Source: Pirellulales bacterium (GTDB lineage Bacteria > Planctomycetota > Planctomycetia > Pirellulales > JAEUIK01). From it: a DNA stretch of 64,000 bases. The stretch lies in the NCBI GenBank assembly GCA_050184475.1, contig JBFXAH010000008.1:100533-164532 (forward strand), read 5' to 3'. The notes under the pieces were generated by a model. That model was not told where the DNA came from and searched no databases. It saw only the letters and a program-made list of their open reading frames with translations. Made by a program: the position numbers and the translations under genes. Shown one piece after another: positions 34,543 to 40,676 of the stretch. Position 1 is the stretch's first letter; every line of letters starts with the position of its first letter.

Positions 34543-37044
34543 ATGTTCCGCCGCGTCGTGCGCATTACCGTCGGTGTCGTCGTGGGCCTGGCCCTGCTCG
34601 TGGGAGGAGCTGGGTTCTGGGGTTACCGGCAGCTCACAGGGAGCTTGCCCCAGCTCGATGGCCAACTCGCGCTCGCCGGGTTGCGAGCGCCGGTCCGCAT
34701 CGAACGCGATCACCTCGGCGTGCCGACCATCACCGCGCGCAACCGCGTCGACCTGGCCTTCGCCACGGGGTTCTGTCATGGGCAGGAACGGTTCTTTCAA
34801 TTGGATCTCTTGCGCCGCACCGCCGCCGGCGAACTGGCCGAATTGGTCGGCGGCGCCGTGGCCGACGTCGATCGCCAGCACCGCATCCATCGCTTTCGCT
34901 GGCGCGCGCAGCAAGTCGCCGAGGCCCCGCACACCCGCGCCGATCGCGAGTTGCTCGAAGCCTACGCCCAGGGCGTCAACGCCGGCCTGCAATCGCTCCG
35001 CACTGTCCCCTTCGAATACTACGTGCTCCGCGCCGATCCCGAGCCTTGGCGGGTCGAAGACAGCGTGCTCGCGCTGTACGCGATGTATCTCGACTTGCAA
35101 GGGCGCGACCACATAGACGAACAACTGCTCGGGCTATTGCACGACCGGCTGCCGGCCCCGCTTTACGAGTTCTTGACTCCGATGGGCACCGAGTGGGACG
35201 CGCCGCTTGAAGGGGCCGCTCTGGAAGTCGCGGCCATCCCCACGGCCGACGTGCTCGACCTGCGCCCGCAAGCGAACGAGACGGTGCCGGCCGACGATCC
35301 CGCCGCGCCCGCGGCCGAGCCCGCCGACGAACCGGCCGCGGCTGCCACCTCGAGCGCATCGTGGGCGGATCGATTCGCGGCGGCGCTGCTCCACGTCGAT
35401 GCCGACGAAGAATGTCGGCCCGGCAGCAACAACTGGGCCGTGGCCGGCACCCACACCAAGCATGGCGGCGCCATCGTCGCCAACGATATGCATTTGGGGA
35501 TTCGCGTGCCCCACATCTGGTATCGCGCGCGGTTCGCCTGGACCGACGATGCCGGCACGCAGCGGCAAATCACGGGAGTCACCCTCCCCGGCACGCCCGC
35601 CATGGTCGTCGGCAGCAATGGGCAGATCGCCTGGGGCTTTACCAATAGCGAGGGGGATTGGTCCGACCTGGTCGTGGTCGAAGTCTCCGAGGACAACCCC
35701 GACGAGTACCTCACGCCCGACGGTCCGCGTCGCTTCGAGCGCGTGATCGAACAGATCAAGATCAAAGGCGCCGCCGAGCAACCGCTGGAGATCGTGTCGA
35801 CCATCTGGGGCCCGATCGTAGGGCACGACGCGCAGAAGCGCCCGCTGGCCCAGCGCTGGGTGGCGCACGACGTCGAAGGAGTCAATCTCGGACTGCTGCG
35901 CATGGAAAATGTCGAGAGTCTCGACGCGGCGCTGGCGCTGGCAACCCTTTGCGGCTCGCCCCATCAGAACTTCGTCGTCGGCGACCGCAGTGGGCGGATC
36001 GGCTGGACGATTATCGGGCGGATGCCGCGCCGCGTGGGGTTCGATGGTCGGCTCCCCACGTCGTGGGCCGACGGCAGCAGATACTGGGACGGTTGGCTGC
36101 CGGCCGAAGAGTATCCTCGCTTCGTCGATCCTCCCGACGGGCGCATCTGGACCGCCAACGCGCGGGTCGTCGCCGGCGAGAACCTGGCCCGCCTGGGAGA
36201 CGGCGGCTACGACCTGGGGGCTCGCGCCCAACAAATCCGTGACGACCTGGCGGCGATCGACAAGGCTGACGAAGCGGACATGCTCAAGGTGCAGCTCGAC
36301 GATCGCGCGGTGTTTCTCGAGCGCTGGCAGAAGCTGCTGCTGGAAACGATCACCGGCGATGCAATCGCCGAGCGGCCGGCCCGCCGCGAGTTTCGCGAGC
36401 TGGTCGAGAAATGGGGAGGTCGCGCGTCGACTGACTCGGTCGGCTACCTCTTGGTGCGCGACTGGCGGCGCGACGTGCTGCGCCGCGCAATTGATCCGCT
36501 CGTCGCCCAGGCGAAAGAACCCGACAAGCCCGACCAGGACTTGAACATGCGGCGCCTGGAGCGCGTCGAGGGGCCGCTGTGGCGATTGGTGACCAACCGC
36601 CCCCCGCATCTGCTCGATCCCAAGTACGATAGTTGGCAGGCACTGTTGCTCACCGCCGTCGATACCGTGCTTTATGAGCAGACCGTTGGCGGCGAGCCGC
36701 TCTCGGCCCAGACCTGGGGAAAGCGCAACACCACGCGGATTCAGCATCCGCTTAGCCTGGGCGTGCCGCGGCTGGGGCACTGGCTCGACATGCCGAGCGA
36801 GCAACTGCCTGGGGACGGCGCCGACATGCCACGCATCCAAACGCCTACCTCGGGCGCGTCGGAACGGATGGCGGTCTCGCCGGGGCACGAGGACAAAGCT
36901 TATTTGCACATGCCGTGCGGCCAGAGCGGGCATCCGCTTTCGCCCCATTACGACGACGCGCAGCGCGCCTGGTGCGAAGGCACGCCGACGCCGTTTTTGC
37001 CGGGGCCCACGCTGCATACGTTGGAACTCGTACCGGCAGGTTGA
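34543..37044 (+). CDS. Penicillin acylase family (S45 Ntn-hydrolase)
   Basis: N-terminal anchor; GVPTI, GSNNWAV nucleophile, ANDMHL, WTAN and GQSGHP motifs. Confidence 0.93.
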   Translation: MFRRVVRITVGVVVGLALLVGGAGFWGYRQLTGSLPQLDGQLALAGLRAPVRIERDHLGVPTITARNRVDLAFATGFCHGQERFFQLDLLRRTAAGELAELVGGAVADVDRQHRIHRFRWRAQQVAEAPHTRADRELLEAYAQGVNAGLQSLRTVPFEYYVLRADPEPWRVEDSVLALYAMYLDLQGRDHIDEQLLGLLHDRLPAPLYEFLTPMGTEWDAPLEGAALEVAAIPTADVLDLRPQANETVPADDPAAPAAEPADEPAAAATSSASWADRFAAALLHVDADEECRPGSNNWAVAGTHTKHGGAIVANDMHLGIRVPHIWYRARFAWTDDAGTQRQITGVTLPGTPAMVVGSNGQIAWGFTNSEGDWSDLVVVEVSEDNPDEYLTPDGPRRFERVIEQIKIKGAAEQPLEIVSTIWGPIVGHDAQKRPLAQRWVAHDVEGVNLGLLRMENVESLDAALALATLCGSPHQNFVVGDRSGRIGWTIIGRMPRRVGFDGRLPTSWADGSRYWDGWLPAEEYPRFVDPPDGRIWTANARVVAGENLARLGDGGYDLGARAQQIRDDLAAIDKADEADMLKVQLDDRAVFLERWQKLLLETITGDAIAERPARREFRELVEKWGGRASTDSVGYLLVRDWRRDVLRRAIDPLVAQAKEPDKPDQDLNMRRLERVEGPLWRLVTNRPPHLLDPKYDSWQALLLTAVDTVLYEQTVGGEPLSAQTWGKRNTTRIQHPLSLGVPRLGHWLDMPSEQLPGDGADMPRIQTPTSGASERMAVSPGHEDKAYLHMPCGQSGHPLSPHYDDAQRAWCEGTPTPFLPGPTLHTLELVPAG

Positions 37045-37049
37045 TTGAC

Positions 37050-38174
37050 ATGAGTCGAACGCTAAATCCTGATCCGCGCCGGCCGCGTTGGCCCTGGGTG
37101 GTCGTCGTTGCCTTCGTGGTTTTCTCGGCCGGAGCATTGGCCTGGGATTGGAATGCCCGCAAGGCCGTGGAACCGCCGGCTGACGCCCCGCCCCAAATGG
37201 TGTGGATTCCGCCAGGCGAGTTCACGATGGGGAGCGACGATCCCGAAGCGCGCGATGGCGAAGGTCCTCCGCACCAGGTGCGCGTCGATGGCTTCTGGAT
37301 CGACGAAACCGAAGTCACCAATGCCCAGTTCGCCGAATTCGTGAAAGCCACGAACTACGTGACGACCGCCGAGCGCAAGCCCGACTGGGAGGAGCTCAAA
37401 AAGCAGGTTCCCCCCGGCACGCCCAAGCCCGCCGACGAGTTGCTCGTGGCCTCGTCGCTGGTGTTTCGCCCGCCGCCGGGTCCGGTGCCGTTGGACGACG
37501 TCGCGCAATGGTGGGAGTGGACCGCCGGGGCCGACTGGCGCCATCCCGAGGGGCCCAAAAGTTCCCTCGACGGGCGCGAGAATCATCCGGTCGTGCATGT
37601 CTCGTGGGACGACGCCATGGCCTACGCCAAGTGGGCCGGCAAGCGGTTGCCCACCGAAGCCGAGTGGGAGCGCGCCGCCCGCGGCGGGCTCGAGGGTAAG
37701 CCGTACGTCTGGGGAGACGACCCGGTCTCCGACATGCGACCGCAGGCCAACATCTGGCAAGGCAACTTCCCCAACGAAAACACCGAGCGCGACGGCTTCT
37801 TCCGCACGGCTCCGGTCAAGTCGTATCCCGCGAACGGTTTCGGCCTGTACGACATGCCGGGCAATGTCTGGGAGTGGTGCAGCGATTGGTACCGGCCCGA
37901 CACCTACGATCGTCAGTTAGCCGAGACCGGCGGGGGCGTCGTCGACAACCCCACGGGGCCCGATTCGAGCTACGATCCGCGCGAGCCGTATGCCCCCAAG
38001 CGCGTGCATCGCGGCGGTTCGTATTTGTGCAATGCGTCGTACTGCAGCAGCTATCGCCCCGGCGCGCGGCGCGGCACGACCCCCGACTCGAGCATGGGGC
38101 ATCTGGGCTTCCGCTGCGTGACGACTCCCGAGCTGTGGAAAGCGCACCAAGCGGGGCAGCCGGGCGGCAAGTAG
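37050..38174 (+). CDS. Formylglycine-generating enzyme (SUMF1 family)
   Basis: EVTNAQF, RLPTEAEWE, GNVWEW and RGGSYLCNASYC..YR (catalytic Cys pair) motifs. Confidence 0.9.
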   Translation: MSRTLNPDPRRPRWPWVVVVAFVVFSAGALAWDWNARKAVEPPADAPPQMVWIPPGEFTMGSDDPEARDGEGPPHQVRVDGFWIDETEVTNAQFAEFVKATNYVTTAERKPDWEELKKQVPPGTPKPADELLVASSLVFRPPPGPVPLDDVAQWWEWTAGADWRHPEGPKSSLDGRENHPVVHVSWDDAMAYAKWAGKRLPTEAEWERAARGGLEGKPYVWGDDPVSDMRPQANIWQGNFPNENTERDGFFRTAPVKSYPANGFGLYDMPGNVWEWCSDWYRPDTYDRQLAETGGGVVDNPTGPDSSYDPREPYAPKRVHRGGSYLCNASYCSSYRPGARRGTTPDSSMGHLGFRCVTTPELWKAHQAGQPGGK

Positions 38175-38183
38175 CGACGCGGT

Positions 38184-39356
38184 TCAGATTCCCGCCCCGG
38201 CCGTGAATTCGAGCTCCACGTCCAACGGGCGGCGGCTGTTCTCTTCGGCGAACCACGCCATGTCGTACATCAGCGTCTGTTCGTCGGCACTGGTCGCCAG
38301 CACGCGCTGCGTGGCCGCCACGCGCACCGCGCACGGCCGGCTGTGGTGGATCAGGTAGCCGCCGTTGAGCGCGTCGTGCTCCAGCGGCTGCACCGCTCCG
38401 CGGGCCGAAATCGCGCGGGCCAGTATCGTGTGCGGCCCTGACTCGCCGGTTTCCCACAGGTACTCCCACAACGTCCACGAGTAGCGCGCCGTGGGGCCGA
38501 CCAACTCGGCCGACGTCCAGGAGTTGCCGCCATCGGTGCTGATCTCGACGCGCGCCACGGCATCGTCGCCAGCCCAGGCCACGCCAAACACGCGGTTGGT
38601 CCCCACGCCCAGCACGTCGCCAGGTCGGGGGCGAATGATCTCCGATTTGACCGCCATCGGGCCGACGATCTGGCGCTCGAGCCCCGCGCCGGTCTGCCGC
38701 TCGATCGTGTATTTCTTCGTTTGAAAGTACCCGCCGAAGGGGCGATCGATGGCCGCGATGCGCGACAGCCATTTCACGCTGGCCACGCCATACCACCCGG
38801 GAACCAACAGCCGGGCCGGCGCGCCGTGGTTCGGTTCGAGCAACTCGCCGTTCATACGCGTGGCGACCAGCGTGTCGCGGTCGAGCGCCTTGGCCAGCGG
38901 CAAGCTGCGCGCAAAGGGCATCTCTTCCGGATGATCGGCTTCGCTGCCGCGATCGGCCCCCTCGCAGACGATCTCGCTGGCCGTCGCCGACAGACCGGCT
39001 TCTTCCAGAATCAATCGCAGCGGCACCCCCGTCCATTCGGCATGCCCCACGGCCCCGGCGCCCCACTGCACGCCATGCGCGTGCGGGCTGAGAAACGAGC
39101 GCCCGTTGCCGGCGCATTCCATCGTGGCGAAGACGGTCCGCTCGGGCATGGCGGCCAGTTGGTCCCAATTGATTTCCAACGGCCGGCTGACCTGCCCGGC
39201 GATCGACAGCCGCCAGGCGTCGCGGTCGATCGTCGGCACGCCGAAGTGATTGCGGACGAAGAACAGCCGATTCGAGGTCACCCAACTGCGCAGCGACTCG
39301 AGCGGCATCTCGCTGTTTTCGGGCTCGGCCGTGACAACGTGTCGCTGTTCGTTCAT
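38184..39356 (-). CDS. Sulfite oxidase family molybdoenzyme
   Basis: FFVRNH, ECAGNGR, HGAPARLLVPGWYG..SVKWL motifs and dimerisation domain; no signal peptide. Confidence 0.92.
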   Translation of the reverse strand: MNEQRHVVTAEPENSEMPLESLRSWVTSNRLFFVRNHFGVPTIDRDAWRLSIAGQVSRPLEINWDQLAAMPERTVFATMECAGNGRSFLSPHAHGVQWGAGAVGHAEWTGVPLRLILEEAGLSATASEIVCEGADRGSEADHPEEMPFARSLPLAKALDRDTLVATRMNGELLEPNHGAPARLLVPGWYGVASVKWLSRIAAIDRPFGGYFQTKKYTIERQTGAGLERQIVGPMAVKSEIIRPRPGDVLGVGTNRVFGVAWAGDDAVARVEISTDGGNSWTSAELVGPTARYSWTLWEYLWETGESGPHTILARAISARGAVQPLEHDALNGGYLIHHSRPCAVRVAATQRVLATSADEQTLMYDMAWFAEENSRRPLDVELEFTAGAGI

Positions 39357-39401
39357 CGCGAAGACCTCGCCGAGGATCAGAACTGGAACCGAAGCCTGTG
39401 C

Positions 39402-39935
39402 TTAAATACCCGCCGCGTCGCTGAACTCCAGCAGCATGGCCTCCTGGCCGCGGACGTTGTCGGTCAACGAATACGTCCCCATGTACCGCAGCGGCGGCGT
39501 GTAGACGTGCAAAGTCACCAGGTCGGCCGTGCCGGCTTGCAAGTTCGAGACCTGGTGCAGGTCGTGATCCTCGCTGCCGATGACCGTCCCCACGGGGCAC
39601 TCTCTCGATCCGGTGGCCAAGACCAGCCCGTTGGCCGAGAACTCGAACTGCGTTTCGGTCATCGTCCCCCGCAGCACGCGGACTCCACAGCTCGAGCCCA
39701 GATGATCGTGGATGGGCGAGCGCTGCCCGTTGAGCCAGCAAAGCACCAGCAGGTTATACCACCGTCCGGAAGCGACGAGGTTGCGCGCGTAGTGCAACGG
39801 CGTGAACTGCACCCACTCGTGCAACTCGTCGCAATCGACCGCCAGGTCGCTGAGCCGGGTCGTCAGTTCTGCCAACGGAGCGCGATCGTCGAGGCGATCG
39901 AGGTACTCGATCAGGGGCGCAAGACAAGTGACCAT
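39402..39935 (-). CDS. Cysteine dioxygenase type I family
   Basis: YARN, SPIHDH, LH.V.N and LHVY.PP motifs; start at ATG 39935. Confidence 0.9.
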   Translation of the reverse strand: MVTCLAPLIEYLDRLDDRAPLAELTTRLSDLAVDCDELHEWVQFTPLHYARNLVASGRWYNLLVLCWLNGQRSPIHDHLGSSCGVRVLRGTMTETQFEFSANGLVLATGSRECPVGTVIGSEDHDLHQVSNLQAGTADLVTLHVYTPPLRYMGTYSLTDNVRGQEAMLLEFSDAAGI

Positions 39936-40124: not shown

Positions 40125-40676
40125 GTGAAGTTAATGCTCTCGGCCGACGAACTGCGCGAGGGGGTCTCGCGCATGGCTGGCCACATCAACCGCCGCTACG
40201 AACGCCGCCCTCTGACGATTGTCGGAGTGTTGACCGGCAGCATCGTCTTGGTGGCCGACCTGATTCGCCAGCTCGAGATGCCGCTGCGGATCGTGCTCGT
40301 GCAAGCCCGCAGCTATCGCGGCCGCTCGACCGCTCCCGGTTCGCTCTATGTCGATGCCGGCGCGCTCGTCGACTTGCGCGGCCAAGACGTGTTGATCGTC
40401 GACGACATTTACGACACCGGGCGAACTCTTGAAGAATTGATCTCGCTGATCGACGCCACGAATCCTGCCTCGGTGCGCGTCGCCGTGCTGTTGCGCAAGC
40501 TGGGGCGTCAGCAGATTGTGATGGAGCCCGACTGGATCGGTTTCGATATCCCCGACGAGTTCGTCGTCGGCTACGGCTTGGACTACGACGACCTGTATCG
40601 CAATCTGCCCTATCTGGCAGCGCTCGAACCCGCGGATCTTCACAACCCCGCCGCCGACGGGGAGTCCCCCGCGTGA
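40125..40676 (+). CDS. hpt: Hypoxanthine phosphoribosyltransferase
   Basis: VLIVDDIYDTG.TL and FVVGYGLDY...YRNLP motifs. Confidence 0.93.
   Translation: MKLMLSADELREGVSRMAGHINRRYERRPLTIVGVLTGSIVLVADLIRQLEMPLRIVLVQARSYRGRSTAPGSLYVDAGALVDLRGQDVLIVDDIYDTGRTLEELISLIDATNPASVRVAVLLRKLGRQQIVMEPDWIGFDIPDEFVVGYGLDYDDLYRNLPYLAALEPADLHNPAADGESPA

Follow-up and report, generated by a model that had tools for sequence, protein, structure and literature searches.

The window analyzed here is a stretch of 64,000 nucleotides from contig JBFXAH010000008.1 of a Pirellulales bacterium (genome G000; 6.79 Mb, 56 contigs, 98.3% complete), whose closest named relatives are metagenome-assembled genomes (MAGs) labelled Pirellulales. 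On the minus strand it carries a gene for a cysteine dioxygenase (CDO) and, 45 nt apart and in the same orientation, a gene for a molybdoenzyme of the sulfite oxidase (SO) family. An earlier note on this DNA had stated that the two proteins end in nearly the same peptide, and reading of both genes confirmed this. The features concerned are:

39402-39935, minus strand: CDO gene, 177 amino acids, PF05995 (CDO_I), stop codon at 39402-39404
39405-39437, minus strand: C-terminal tail of CDO, MLLEFSDAAGI, defined by sequence reading and position counts in homologs
39357-39401, minus strand: CDO-SO intergenic spacer, 45 nt from the CDO stop codon to the SO start codon
38184-39356, minus strand: gene for the SO-family molybdoenzyme, 390 amino acids, PF00174 and PF03404, stop codon at 38184-38186
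38187-38318, minus strand: C-terminal extension of SO, residues 347-390, beyond the PDB profile matches, with secondary structure from AlphaFold
38187-38219, minus strand: C-terminal tail of SO, VELEFTAGAGI, defined by sequence reading and position counts in homologs

The CDO protein ends with ...RGQEAMLLEFSDAAGI and the SO protein with ...RRPLDVELEFTAGAGI, each followed directly by the stop codon. As had been noted before, the tails are encoded by different codons (CTG GAG TTC ... GGT ATT TAA in one gene, CTC GAA TTC ... GGA ATC TGA in the other), which rules out a recent duplication of the DNA. The statement that neither protein has an export signal also agreed with our inspection: none was seen by eye, no predictor having been run. 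The alignments begin near both N-termini (SO residue 8 with residue 27 of mature SorA, CDO residue 3 with residue 10 of mammalian CDO) and, as judged by eye, leave no room for a signal peptide.

Counted from the last residue (-1), both tails follow the pattern h-x-h-[E]-[F/Y]-x-x-[G/A]-x-G-I-COOH (h, hydrophobic), with hydrophobic residues at -11, -9, and -7, Gly or Ala at -4, Gly at -2, and Ile at -1. The CDO tail of the window has Ala at -4, and the SO tail Val at -11, Leu at -9, Glu at -8, Phe at -7, and Gly at -4. Only two of the 62,864 stop-to-stop open reading frames (ORFs) of at least 60 amino acids in the genome match the expression [LIVM]E[FYW].{2,4}[AGS]G[ILV]$, namely CDO and SO. 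Gly-Ile is the terminus of 49 of the 32,648 ORFs of at least 100 amino acids, and again CDO and SO alone have Glu-Phe just upstream. The sharing of the tail is real and lies far beyond chance.

Conservation was assessed with the best 120 homologs of each protein, which share 64-92% identity. The earlier note had made conservation in orthologs one touchstone of its proposal, and the tail was found to be kept: the terminal Gly-Ile is present in 118/120 CDO and 120/120 SO homologs, and the two remaining CDOs have either two additional residues or a protein cut short. Glu at -8 occurs in 115/118 CDO and 94/120 SO homologs, Phe at -7 in 111/118 and 107/120, respectively, and Gly at -4 in 120/120 SO homologs. 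G176 and I177 of CDO (92 sequences) and G387, G389, and I390 of SO (94 sequences) are invariant, and by these alignments the tail is conserved as strongly as the catalytic residues.

The tails lie beyond the catalytic domains, as had been claimed. The Pfam domains stop at residue 156 of 177 in CDO and at residue 326 of 390 in SO, PDB homologs align only to residues 3-161 and 8-343/346, respectively, and no solved structure covers the tail. In AlphaFold monomer models, residues 172-177 of CDO and 373-390 of SO have pLDDT values below 50, which is weak evidence for disorder of the tail because the conserved N-terminus of SO is equally low. A comparison of the CDO alignment with the SO alignment by hhalign gave nothing at the tails; the best match had a probability of 0.2 and lay elsewhere. 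That the tail is an autonomous, tag-like C-terminal short linear motif outside either fold is supported by these comparisons. The open-access literature yielded no paper on the tail, on bacterial CDO-SO pairing, or on CDO-SO fusions. The tail is a strongly conserved, unexplained C-terminal motif that resembles known C-terminal tags in how it works but none of them in sequence.

The CDO matches PF05995 with an E-value of 1.8e-19 over residues 31-156 (70.4 bits versus a curated cut-off of 23), and its homologs are also 177 amino acids long. Its AlphaFold model (pLDDT 93.3) has the secondary structure of a beta-barrel and places the protein in the cupin fold. Residues Y49, R51, H76, H78, C83, H143, and Y145 are invariant in the alignment of 92 sequences and align with the IHDH...C and LHLYSPP segments of CDO1, as in true, mammalian-type CDOs. 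Following rat CDO numbering, we take these residues to represent the iron His triad, the Arg-type substrate residue, and the Cys/Tyr cross-link pair, which are likewise found in CDO1 (2b5h/6bgf). Judged by these residues, the enzyme is of the Arg-type, eukaryote-like kind. Both Cys and Tyr of the mammalian cross-link are retained, and the best PDB match was mammalian CDO1 (E 1.9e-24), compared to about 1e-11 for solved bacterial CDOs. The product of CDO is cysteine sulfinate, not sulfite, and the earlier idea of sulfite production next to its removal is not supported as it stands, since it skips a transaminase or desulfinase step.

The SO protein contains both the molybdenum cofactor-binding domain (PF00174; E 9.1e-58, 195 bits, residues 37-210) and the Ig-like dimerization domain (PF03404; E 3.9e-10, 40.3 bits, residues 231-326) of its family. 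The top Foldseek match of its model was SorA (2blf; E 5.5e-37, TM 0.76/0.80), and TM values against SorA and chicken SO ranged from 0.72 to 0.80. Residues R35, H37, C81, R86, and Y216 align with R55, H57, C104, R109, and Y236 of SorA and are invariant in the alignment of 94 sequences. The protein keeps the Mo-ligand Cys, the Arg/His/Tyr sulfite pocket, and the Ig-like domain that are found in SorA, chicken SO (1sox), plant SO (1ogp), and SorT (4pw3), and sulfite chemistry is predicted. It has no heme domain. Unlike the solved CDO and SO proteins, those of the window carry the tail, and SO lacks a heme or cytochrome partner domain and an export signal. The extension comprises 44 residues that form, according to AlphaFold, a strand, a conserved helix (359-375), and then the tail; D365, A370, N373, L378, D379, G387, G389, and I390 are invariant in it (94 sequences), and it is not present in any solved SO-family structure. 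Four more PF00174 paralogs of the genome (C5:163135-163629, C3:329486-329926, C9:68299-68610, and C12:4919-5191) are tail-less by genome-wide pattern search.

Both active sites bind small anions and contain invariant Arg residues, namely R51 in CDO and R35, R86, and R340 in SO. The tail might be a lid or pseudosubstrate whose carboxylate folds into the anion-binding site of its own enzyme, i.e., the Arg pocket of CDO or the sulfite pocket of SO, and thereby gates activity. Such a device would require no other gene, and the tails are flexible in the models. We regard it as quite improbable: it would require two active sites of unrelated build to favor one and the same 12-residue sequence, a plug leaves the Glu-Phe strand before it without an obvious role, and AlphaFold placed no tail in cis.

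The distribution of the tail was analyzed at 80 loci seeded with a CDO profile, which came from Gemmataceae, Phycisphaerae, Isosphaeraceae, Pirellulales, Kofleriaceae, and Verrucomicrobia, and at 80 loci seeded with an SO profile. A separate CDO gene with an adjacent SO gene was present at 18 of the CDO-seeded loci; 17/18 CDOs and 17/18 SOs end with GI, and the exceptions look frameshifted. Another 13 loci encode CDO-SO fusions, 12 of them ending with GI. No SO gene was found within 8 kb at 49 loci, at least one of which (L061) has a sequence ending 123 nt after CDO; here, 46 CDOs end with GI, two with GAGV, and one differently. At the SO-seeded loci, the G-x-G-I tail was present in 54 cases, 20 with an adjacent or fused CDO and 34 without a CDO within 5 kb, the latter including Opitutaceae ('LDVELALTAGDGI') and Acidobacteria ('SEFTDGGGI'). 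The other 26 SOs are tail-less and mostly less than 56% identical; among them are the Bryobacterales clade described below and Chthoniobacterales proteins whose sequence ends with the Ig-like domain. CDO homologs of at most 47% identity, taken from a sample of 401 genomes of the phylum, are tail-less, too. In total, tailed proteins occur in at least four phyla (Planctomycetota, Verrucomicrobiota, Acidobacteriota, and Myxococcota).

A Bryobacterales/Terriglobia clade of SOs (L177-L182, L184, L185, L187-L189, L191, and L195) has no long extension and ends with '...KKPLVFAI'. Possibly, this end is a shorter version of the tail motif in which basic residues have taken the place of acidic ones. At two loci, L173 (Verrucomicrobia) and L084 (L084:8806-9873), a tailed CDO stands beside an SO-family enzyme without extension and without tail, showing that the tails of the partners need not match.

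The two tailed enzymes also occur independently of each other at the level of genomes. G403 (a complete 8.7-Mb chromosome) and G172 (100% complete) encode a tailed CDO and no PF00174 protein, the control G000 giving five matches. Conversely, G409, G410, and G412 encode a tailed SO and no PF05995 protein, with G000 and G403 as positive controls, the absence of CDO being less firm as these are MAGs of unknown completeness. A profile made from the CDO alignment found no CDO in G408-G412, in a search run without a positive control, and G405 has tailed SO and CDO on different contigs. Among CDOs as among SOs, the tail is a feature of a single clade, and each of the two enzymes retains it in the absence of the other.

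A search for longer forms gave 149 proteins, and the following figures rest on the best 120 of these 149. CDO-SO fusions account for 113 of them, with a size of 540-580, mostly 556, amino acids. Members are P0275-P0392, P0203, P0215, and P0228, and the fusion loci are L065, L067, L068, L070-L072, L074, L077, L083, L091, L094, L104, and L110. Whereas the terminal GI is present in 113/113 listed fusions, a GI-like motif at the junction was found in 1/113. The junction reads RGE[DE]VW[VL]E[ES]RK[VM]VT, where VW[VL]E[ES] stands for the CDO tail and leads straight into the SO N-terminus; missing are the spacer, the CDO tail from about position -9, and the first SO residues, and there is virtually no linker. 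Loss of the internal copy and retention of the terminal copy suggest that the motif is of use only at the free C-terminal end of a chain, which it seems to need, and that one copy per polypeptide is enough. According to the Rosetta-stone argument, the existence of the fusions implies that CDO and SO work as one physical unit. Given the lack of a linker and the fact that CDO forms sulfinate, one may ask whether sulfinate itself is a substrate of the Mo domain; on a bolder reading, the Mo domain of the fusions may act directly on the CDO product, converting sulfinate to sulfonate, rather than on free sulfite.

The earlier note had considered hetero-assembly of the two enzymes. If the tail served exclusively for docking of CDO onto SO, both steps would be co-localized, in keeping with the adjacent, co-oriented genes of the window and of the 18 CDO-seeded loci and with abundant fusions, in which the CDO tail is dispensable once the proteins are covalently joined. 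As the sole function, this is already contradicted by the tailed CDOs of the SO-less genomes G403 and G172 and the tailed SOs of the CDO-less genomes G409, G410, and G412. Moreover, the SO tail is kept in all of the listed fusions although docking is unneeded there, and the SO-family enzyme beside the tailed CDO of L173 and of L084 has no tail. We consider exclusive docking highly improbable.

Phylogenetic trees of both families were calculated with IQ-TREE (quick setting, LG+G4, SH-aLRT support only, roots resting on outgroups, tail columns kept in the SO tree). The tailed SOs formed the ingroup (71 rows, support 93) versus the tail-less outgroups, and the 'PLVFAI' clade was nested within it. 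CDO adjacency and fusion were concentrated in a mainly Gemmatales subclade, outside of which the partner-less Pirellulales, Acidobacteria/Acidimicrobiia, and Opitutaceae branched. In the CDO tree, the tail clade (85 rows, support 93) had basal Phycisphaerae-type groups without SO, and every SO-linked form fell into a nested clade (50 rows, support 96), in which rows labelled 'none' are mostly GI-ending variants missed by the strict search pattern. The fusions formed approximately one clade in the CDO tree (14 rows, support 91) and were scattered in the SO tree, with basal polytomies. On the simplest, undemonstrated reading of these trees, the tail would be older than the CDO-SO pairing in both families.

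The main rival to the explanation that we favor below is a self-assembly arm. The tail would then pair as a strand with another tail or with the edge of a sheet in the mate of a homo-oligomer, e.g., in the Ig-like domain of SO; no third protein would be needed, and CDO and SO would co-assemble through the shared arm where they coexist. The sequence D-V-E-L-E-F alternates hydrophobic and acidic residues as amphipathic beta-strands typically do, the SO extension emerges from the dimerization domain, no conserved third gene was found, and more than 100 near-linkerless fusions make CDO and SO one physical unit. Mutual information with average product correction also linked the tail to the Ig-like domain of SO, namely position -8 to residue 241 (z 6.2) and position -5 to residues 230-233 (z about 4.4). 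However, this covariation was unsupported by phylogenetically independent contrasts: for -8/241, about 2.5 of 10 pairs changed the same way, none in the opposite way, and 7.5 remained unchanged (p about 0.5). The same acceptor surface would have to exist on two unrelated folds, unless tails pair with tails, and the invariant last two residues and the exact end argue for a pocket reading the carboxylate over strand pairing. In addition, tailed lineages without the partner are basal in both trees, so that transfer of the arm through fusion is not the simplest history. Taken together, we regard a self-assembly arm as doubtful.

A proteome search for further functions sharing the tail had been proposed, and it revealed no third family. 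None was present among the 62,864 ORFs of the genome, two related genomes gave one extra match, which lay in a spurious antisense ORF, and the two sets of neighborhood ORFs (6,373 and 5,632) contained no third tailed family. A scan of 401 Planctomycetota genomes for EFxxGxGI followed by a stop codon gave 23 matches, of which only SO of G000 was real, versus 14 for reversed-pattern controls. One unrelated 312-amino-acid ORF (L218) without a Pfam family matches this pattern at background rate. When SO residues 336-390 were compared with 1.84 billion representative proteins by phmmer, 34 matches were obtained. Thirty-two of these were short (36-299 amino acids), and the eight that were read were SO fragments or chimeric ORFs; the weak internal matches in P0267 (822 amino acids) and P0268 (4,330 amino acids) had E-values of about 1.5e-4 to 1.8e-4. 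P0244, P0246, and P0252 consist of an unrelated N-terminal part and the last 35-65 residues, approximately, of a tailed SO, and are probably assembly or ORF-calling chimeras. The tail is restricted to two families, and a proteome-wide tag was rejected because the genome itself, two relatives, the neighborhoods, and the 401 genomes gave no other real carrier. Of the earlier proposal of a targeting, docking, or degradation tag, the tag-like behavior stood, the tail being conserved and dropped when internal; a general address label it is not.

No conserved neighbor gene was found across the 80 + 80 loci. Recurrent neighbors at SO-only loci were only shadow ORFs and a few Opitutaceae TonB-like genes, and the only recurrent real neighbors were a PF03601 transporter beside CDO (17/80 loci) and RecJ (7 loci). 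In the window, the pair is flanked by the following genes, neither of which is conserved beside the pair at other loci:

36915-38174, plus strand: homolog of the formylglycine-generating enzyme, PF03781, convergent flank
40125-40676, plus strand: phosphoribosyltransferase, PF00156, divergent flank

The PF03601 (YeiH-like) membrane transporter is encoded directly beside a tailed CDO, mostly in Phycisphaerae, e.g., at L035:8448-9623, L097:8630-9898, L103:8538-9713, and L117:8537-9727, and 3/3 scanned members matched PF03601. This position suggests export of a sulfur product. As a receptor of the tail, the transporter was rejected because it is missing from 5/5 other tail-bearing genomes, G000 and the complete G403 among them.

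Co-occurrence of the tail with encapsulins or with shells of bacterial microcompartments (BMC) had also been raised and found no support. Family 1 encapsulin (PF04454) gave no match in G000 and was present in only one of five other tail-bearing genomes, families 2-4 not having been searched. No PF04454 or shell-like gene was a conserved neighbor at the 160 loci. A family 1 encapsulin as reader of the tail was rejected because the shell gene is missing from most tail-bearing genomes. The shell protein BMC-H is encoded in G000, on contig C4 and away from the pair, and in 4/5 other tail-bearing genomes; G411 has a tailed SO and no BMC-H. However, 68/201 genomes of the phylum and 12/12 genomes of the class-level family of the window (f4) contain BMC-H, and 20 sampled f4 genomes gave no real tail match. 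BMC-H is so common across the phylum that its co-occurrence with the tail is uninformative.

The targeting peptides of family 1 encapsulins include NTGGDLGIRK and PLTVGSLRRGG, with the consensus DGSLGIGSLKG (PMC7925596). The tail resembles them in having about 10-12 residues at the extreme C-terminus of unrelated enzymes, apart from the catalytic fold, in combining glycines with hydrophobic anchors, and in being confined to few client families per genome. Unlike these peptides, it is acidic, stops exactly with Ile, and has neither a GSL or L-G-I core nor basic residues close to the end. Encapsulin systems differ also in their genes, as G000 has no PF04454 and none is adjacent at the 160 loci. 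The BMC encapsulation peptide, an amphipathic helix of about 18 residues with a linker, is likewise different, since the last 6 (CDO) or 18 (SO) residues are non-helical or of low confidence, and, unlike BMC cargo, the pair does not lie in a shell locus.

A peptide for loading CDO and SO into a compartment (encapsulin, BMC, or another shell) that encloses cysteine and sulfite oxidation, the first example given in the earlier note, also has to be weighed. One to few client families per genome are typical of such systems, CDO and SO each deal with reactive species of sulfur or oxygen, BMC-H occurs in most of the tail-bearing genomes, and size, position, and the Gly plus hydrophobic anchor are as in the encapsulin peptides of PMC7925596. 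Against it stand the lack of PF04454 in G000, despite its near completeness, and in 4/5 other genomes, the missing GSL/LGI plus basic-residue motif, the location of the BMC locus on another contig together with the abundance of BMC-H in the phylum, the tailed SO of G411 without BMC-H, and the absence of a shell-like conserved neighbor. We rate this explanation as improbable.

The explanation that we favor, and that we hold to be evenly poised between right and wrong, is that the tail is a C-terminal recognition peptide, predicted to be read in trans by another protein. It has three elements: an amphipathic beta-strand-like stretch (-11, -9, and -7, usually with Glu-Phe at -8/-7), a small Gly/Ala turn, and the Gly-Ile carboxylate. 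A pocket on another protein would recognize the tail in trans, free C-terminus included. The same reader would handle both tagged families, leading to co-handling where both exist, and one tag would be enough once the enzymes are fused. Both recognition in trans and the nature of the reader are inferred from the following arguments. Each enzyme is tailed in genomes without the other, which implies that the reader is neither CDO nor SO, and the same tag on two families of cysteine/sulfite catabolism points to the same reader for both. The exact end point, the invariant Gly-Ile, and the loss of the internal copy favor a pocket that reads the free end. Lying outside all solved homologs and having low pLDDT values, both tails also look exposed. 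The lack of a conserved neighbor gene fits a reader encoded elsewhere, e.g., a housekeeping protein.

As to the kind of reader, protease- or PDZ-type recognition is in our view the leading variant of the recognition-tag idea. C-terminal degrons and PDZ ligands have an aliphatic residue after small residues and a free carboxylate, and known degrons for AAA+ proteases include the ssrA tag (...YALAA) and the end of MuA (...RRKKAI). The tail shares with ssrA-type degrons the free C-terminus, the aliphatic end after small residues, and independence from a nearby receptor gene, and its acidic/aromatic element, about eight residues before the end, is reminiscent of the stretch of ssrA that adaptors bind, although in grammar only. 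It is unlike them in sequence and in its much stronger conservation over 12 positions. The tmRNA of G000 was located by ARAGORN at C1:472011-472376; since the printed tag was implausible ('Tag not identified'), the frame was read by hand, and the tag ends with ...AEGSYALAA followed by a stop codon. The tail as a lookalike of the ssrA tag of this organism was rejected on account of this YALAA end. With PDZ and TPR ligands, the tail has in common an invariant hydrophobic last residue, the free carboxylate, and strand-like residues upstream; the invariant Gly at -2 and the variable residue at -3 fit no standard PDZ class that we could name.

It is a tentative possibility, by analogy to these systems, that the reader is a housekeeping AAA+ protease or adaptor and the tail a conditional degron that would tie the lifetimes of CDO and SO to each other. 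Slightly behind this degron reading, and rather doubtful, is a reader that is a scaffold, a redox partner, or an unrecognized compartment or shell encoded elsewhere. More specifically, but unlikely in our estimate, the tail could be the address label of an uncatalogued scaffold or shell that is encoded apart from the pair and gathers the O2-dependent CDO and the heme-less, probably H2O2-producing SO.

Several points weigh against a recognition peptide read in trans. No reader was found for the tail. Twelve conserved positions, including an acidic-aromatic pair, exceed what natural C-terminal degrons typically need, the tmRNA tag end of the organism is unlike the tail, and metabolic enzymes with an unmasked, constitutive degron would be expensive to maintain. 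The covariation between position -8 and SO residue 241, weak as it is, hints at docking of the tail on SO itself. Furthermore, the conserved N-terminus of SO (residues 1-32) also has pLDDT values below 50 in the same model, for which the alignment was shallow, and the absence of CDO from the MAGs G409, G410, and G412 is the less firm half of the partner independence.

Short linear motifs that address, dock, or destabilize proteins are well charted in eukaryotes and poorly in bacteria. A 12-residue motif common to two unrelated enzymes of one pathway, from cysteine to sulfinate/sulfite to sulfate, is unusual. Plant sulfite oxidase carries a C-terminal peroxisomal tripeptide (PTS1), and bacteria have no peroxisome; if the address-label system were true, it would be a bacterial functional analog of the peroxisomal targeting of the plant enzyme. 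If the tail is a degron, cysteine catabolism would be under post-translational control, echoing the control of mammalian CDO by degradation. If it leads to a scaffold or compartment, it would provide spatial organization around a toxic intermediate. In either case, the peptide would lend itself to engineering as a portable tag. The analysis also brought to light eukaryote-like bacterial CDOs that form a large, unstudied clade, another clade made up of cytoplasmic sulfite oxidases without heme, and more than 100 natural CDO-SO fusions.

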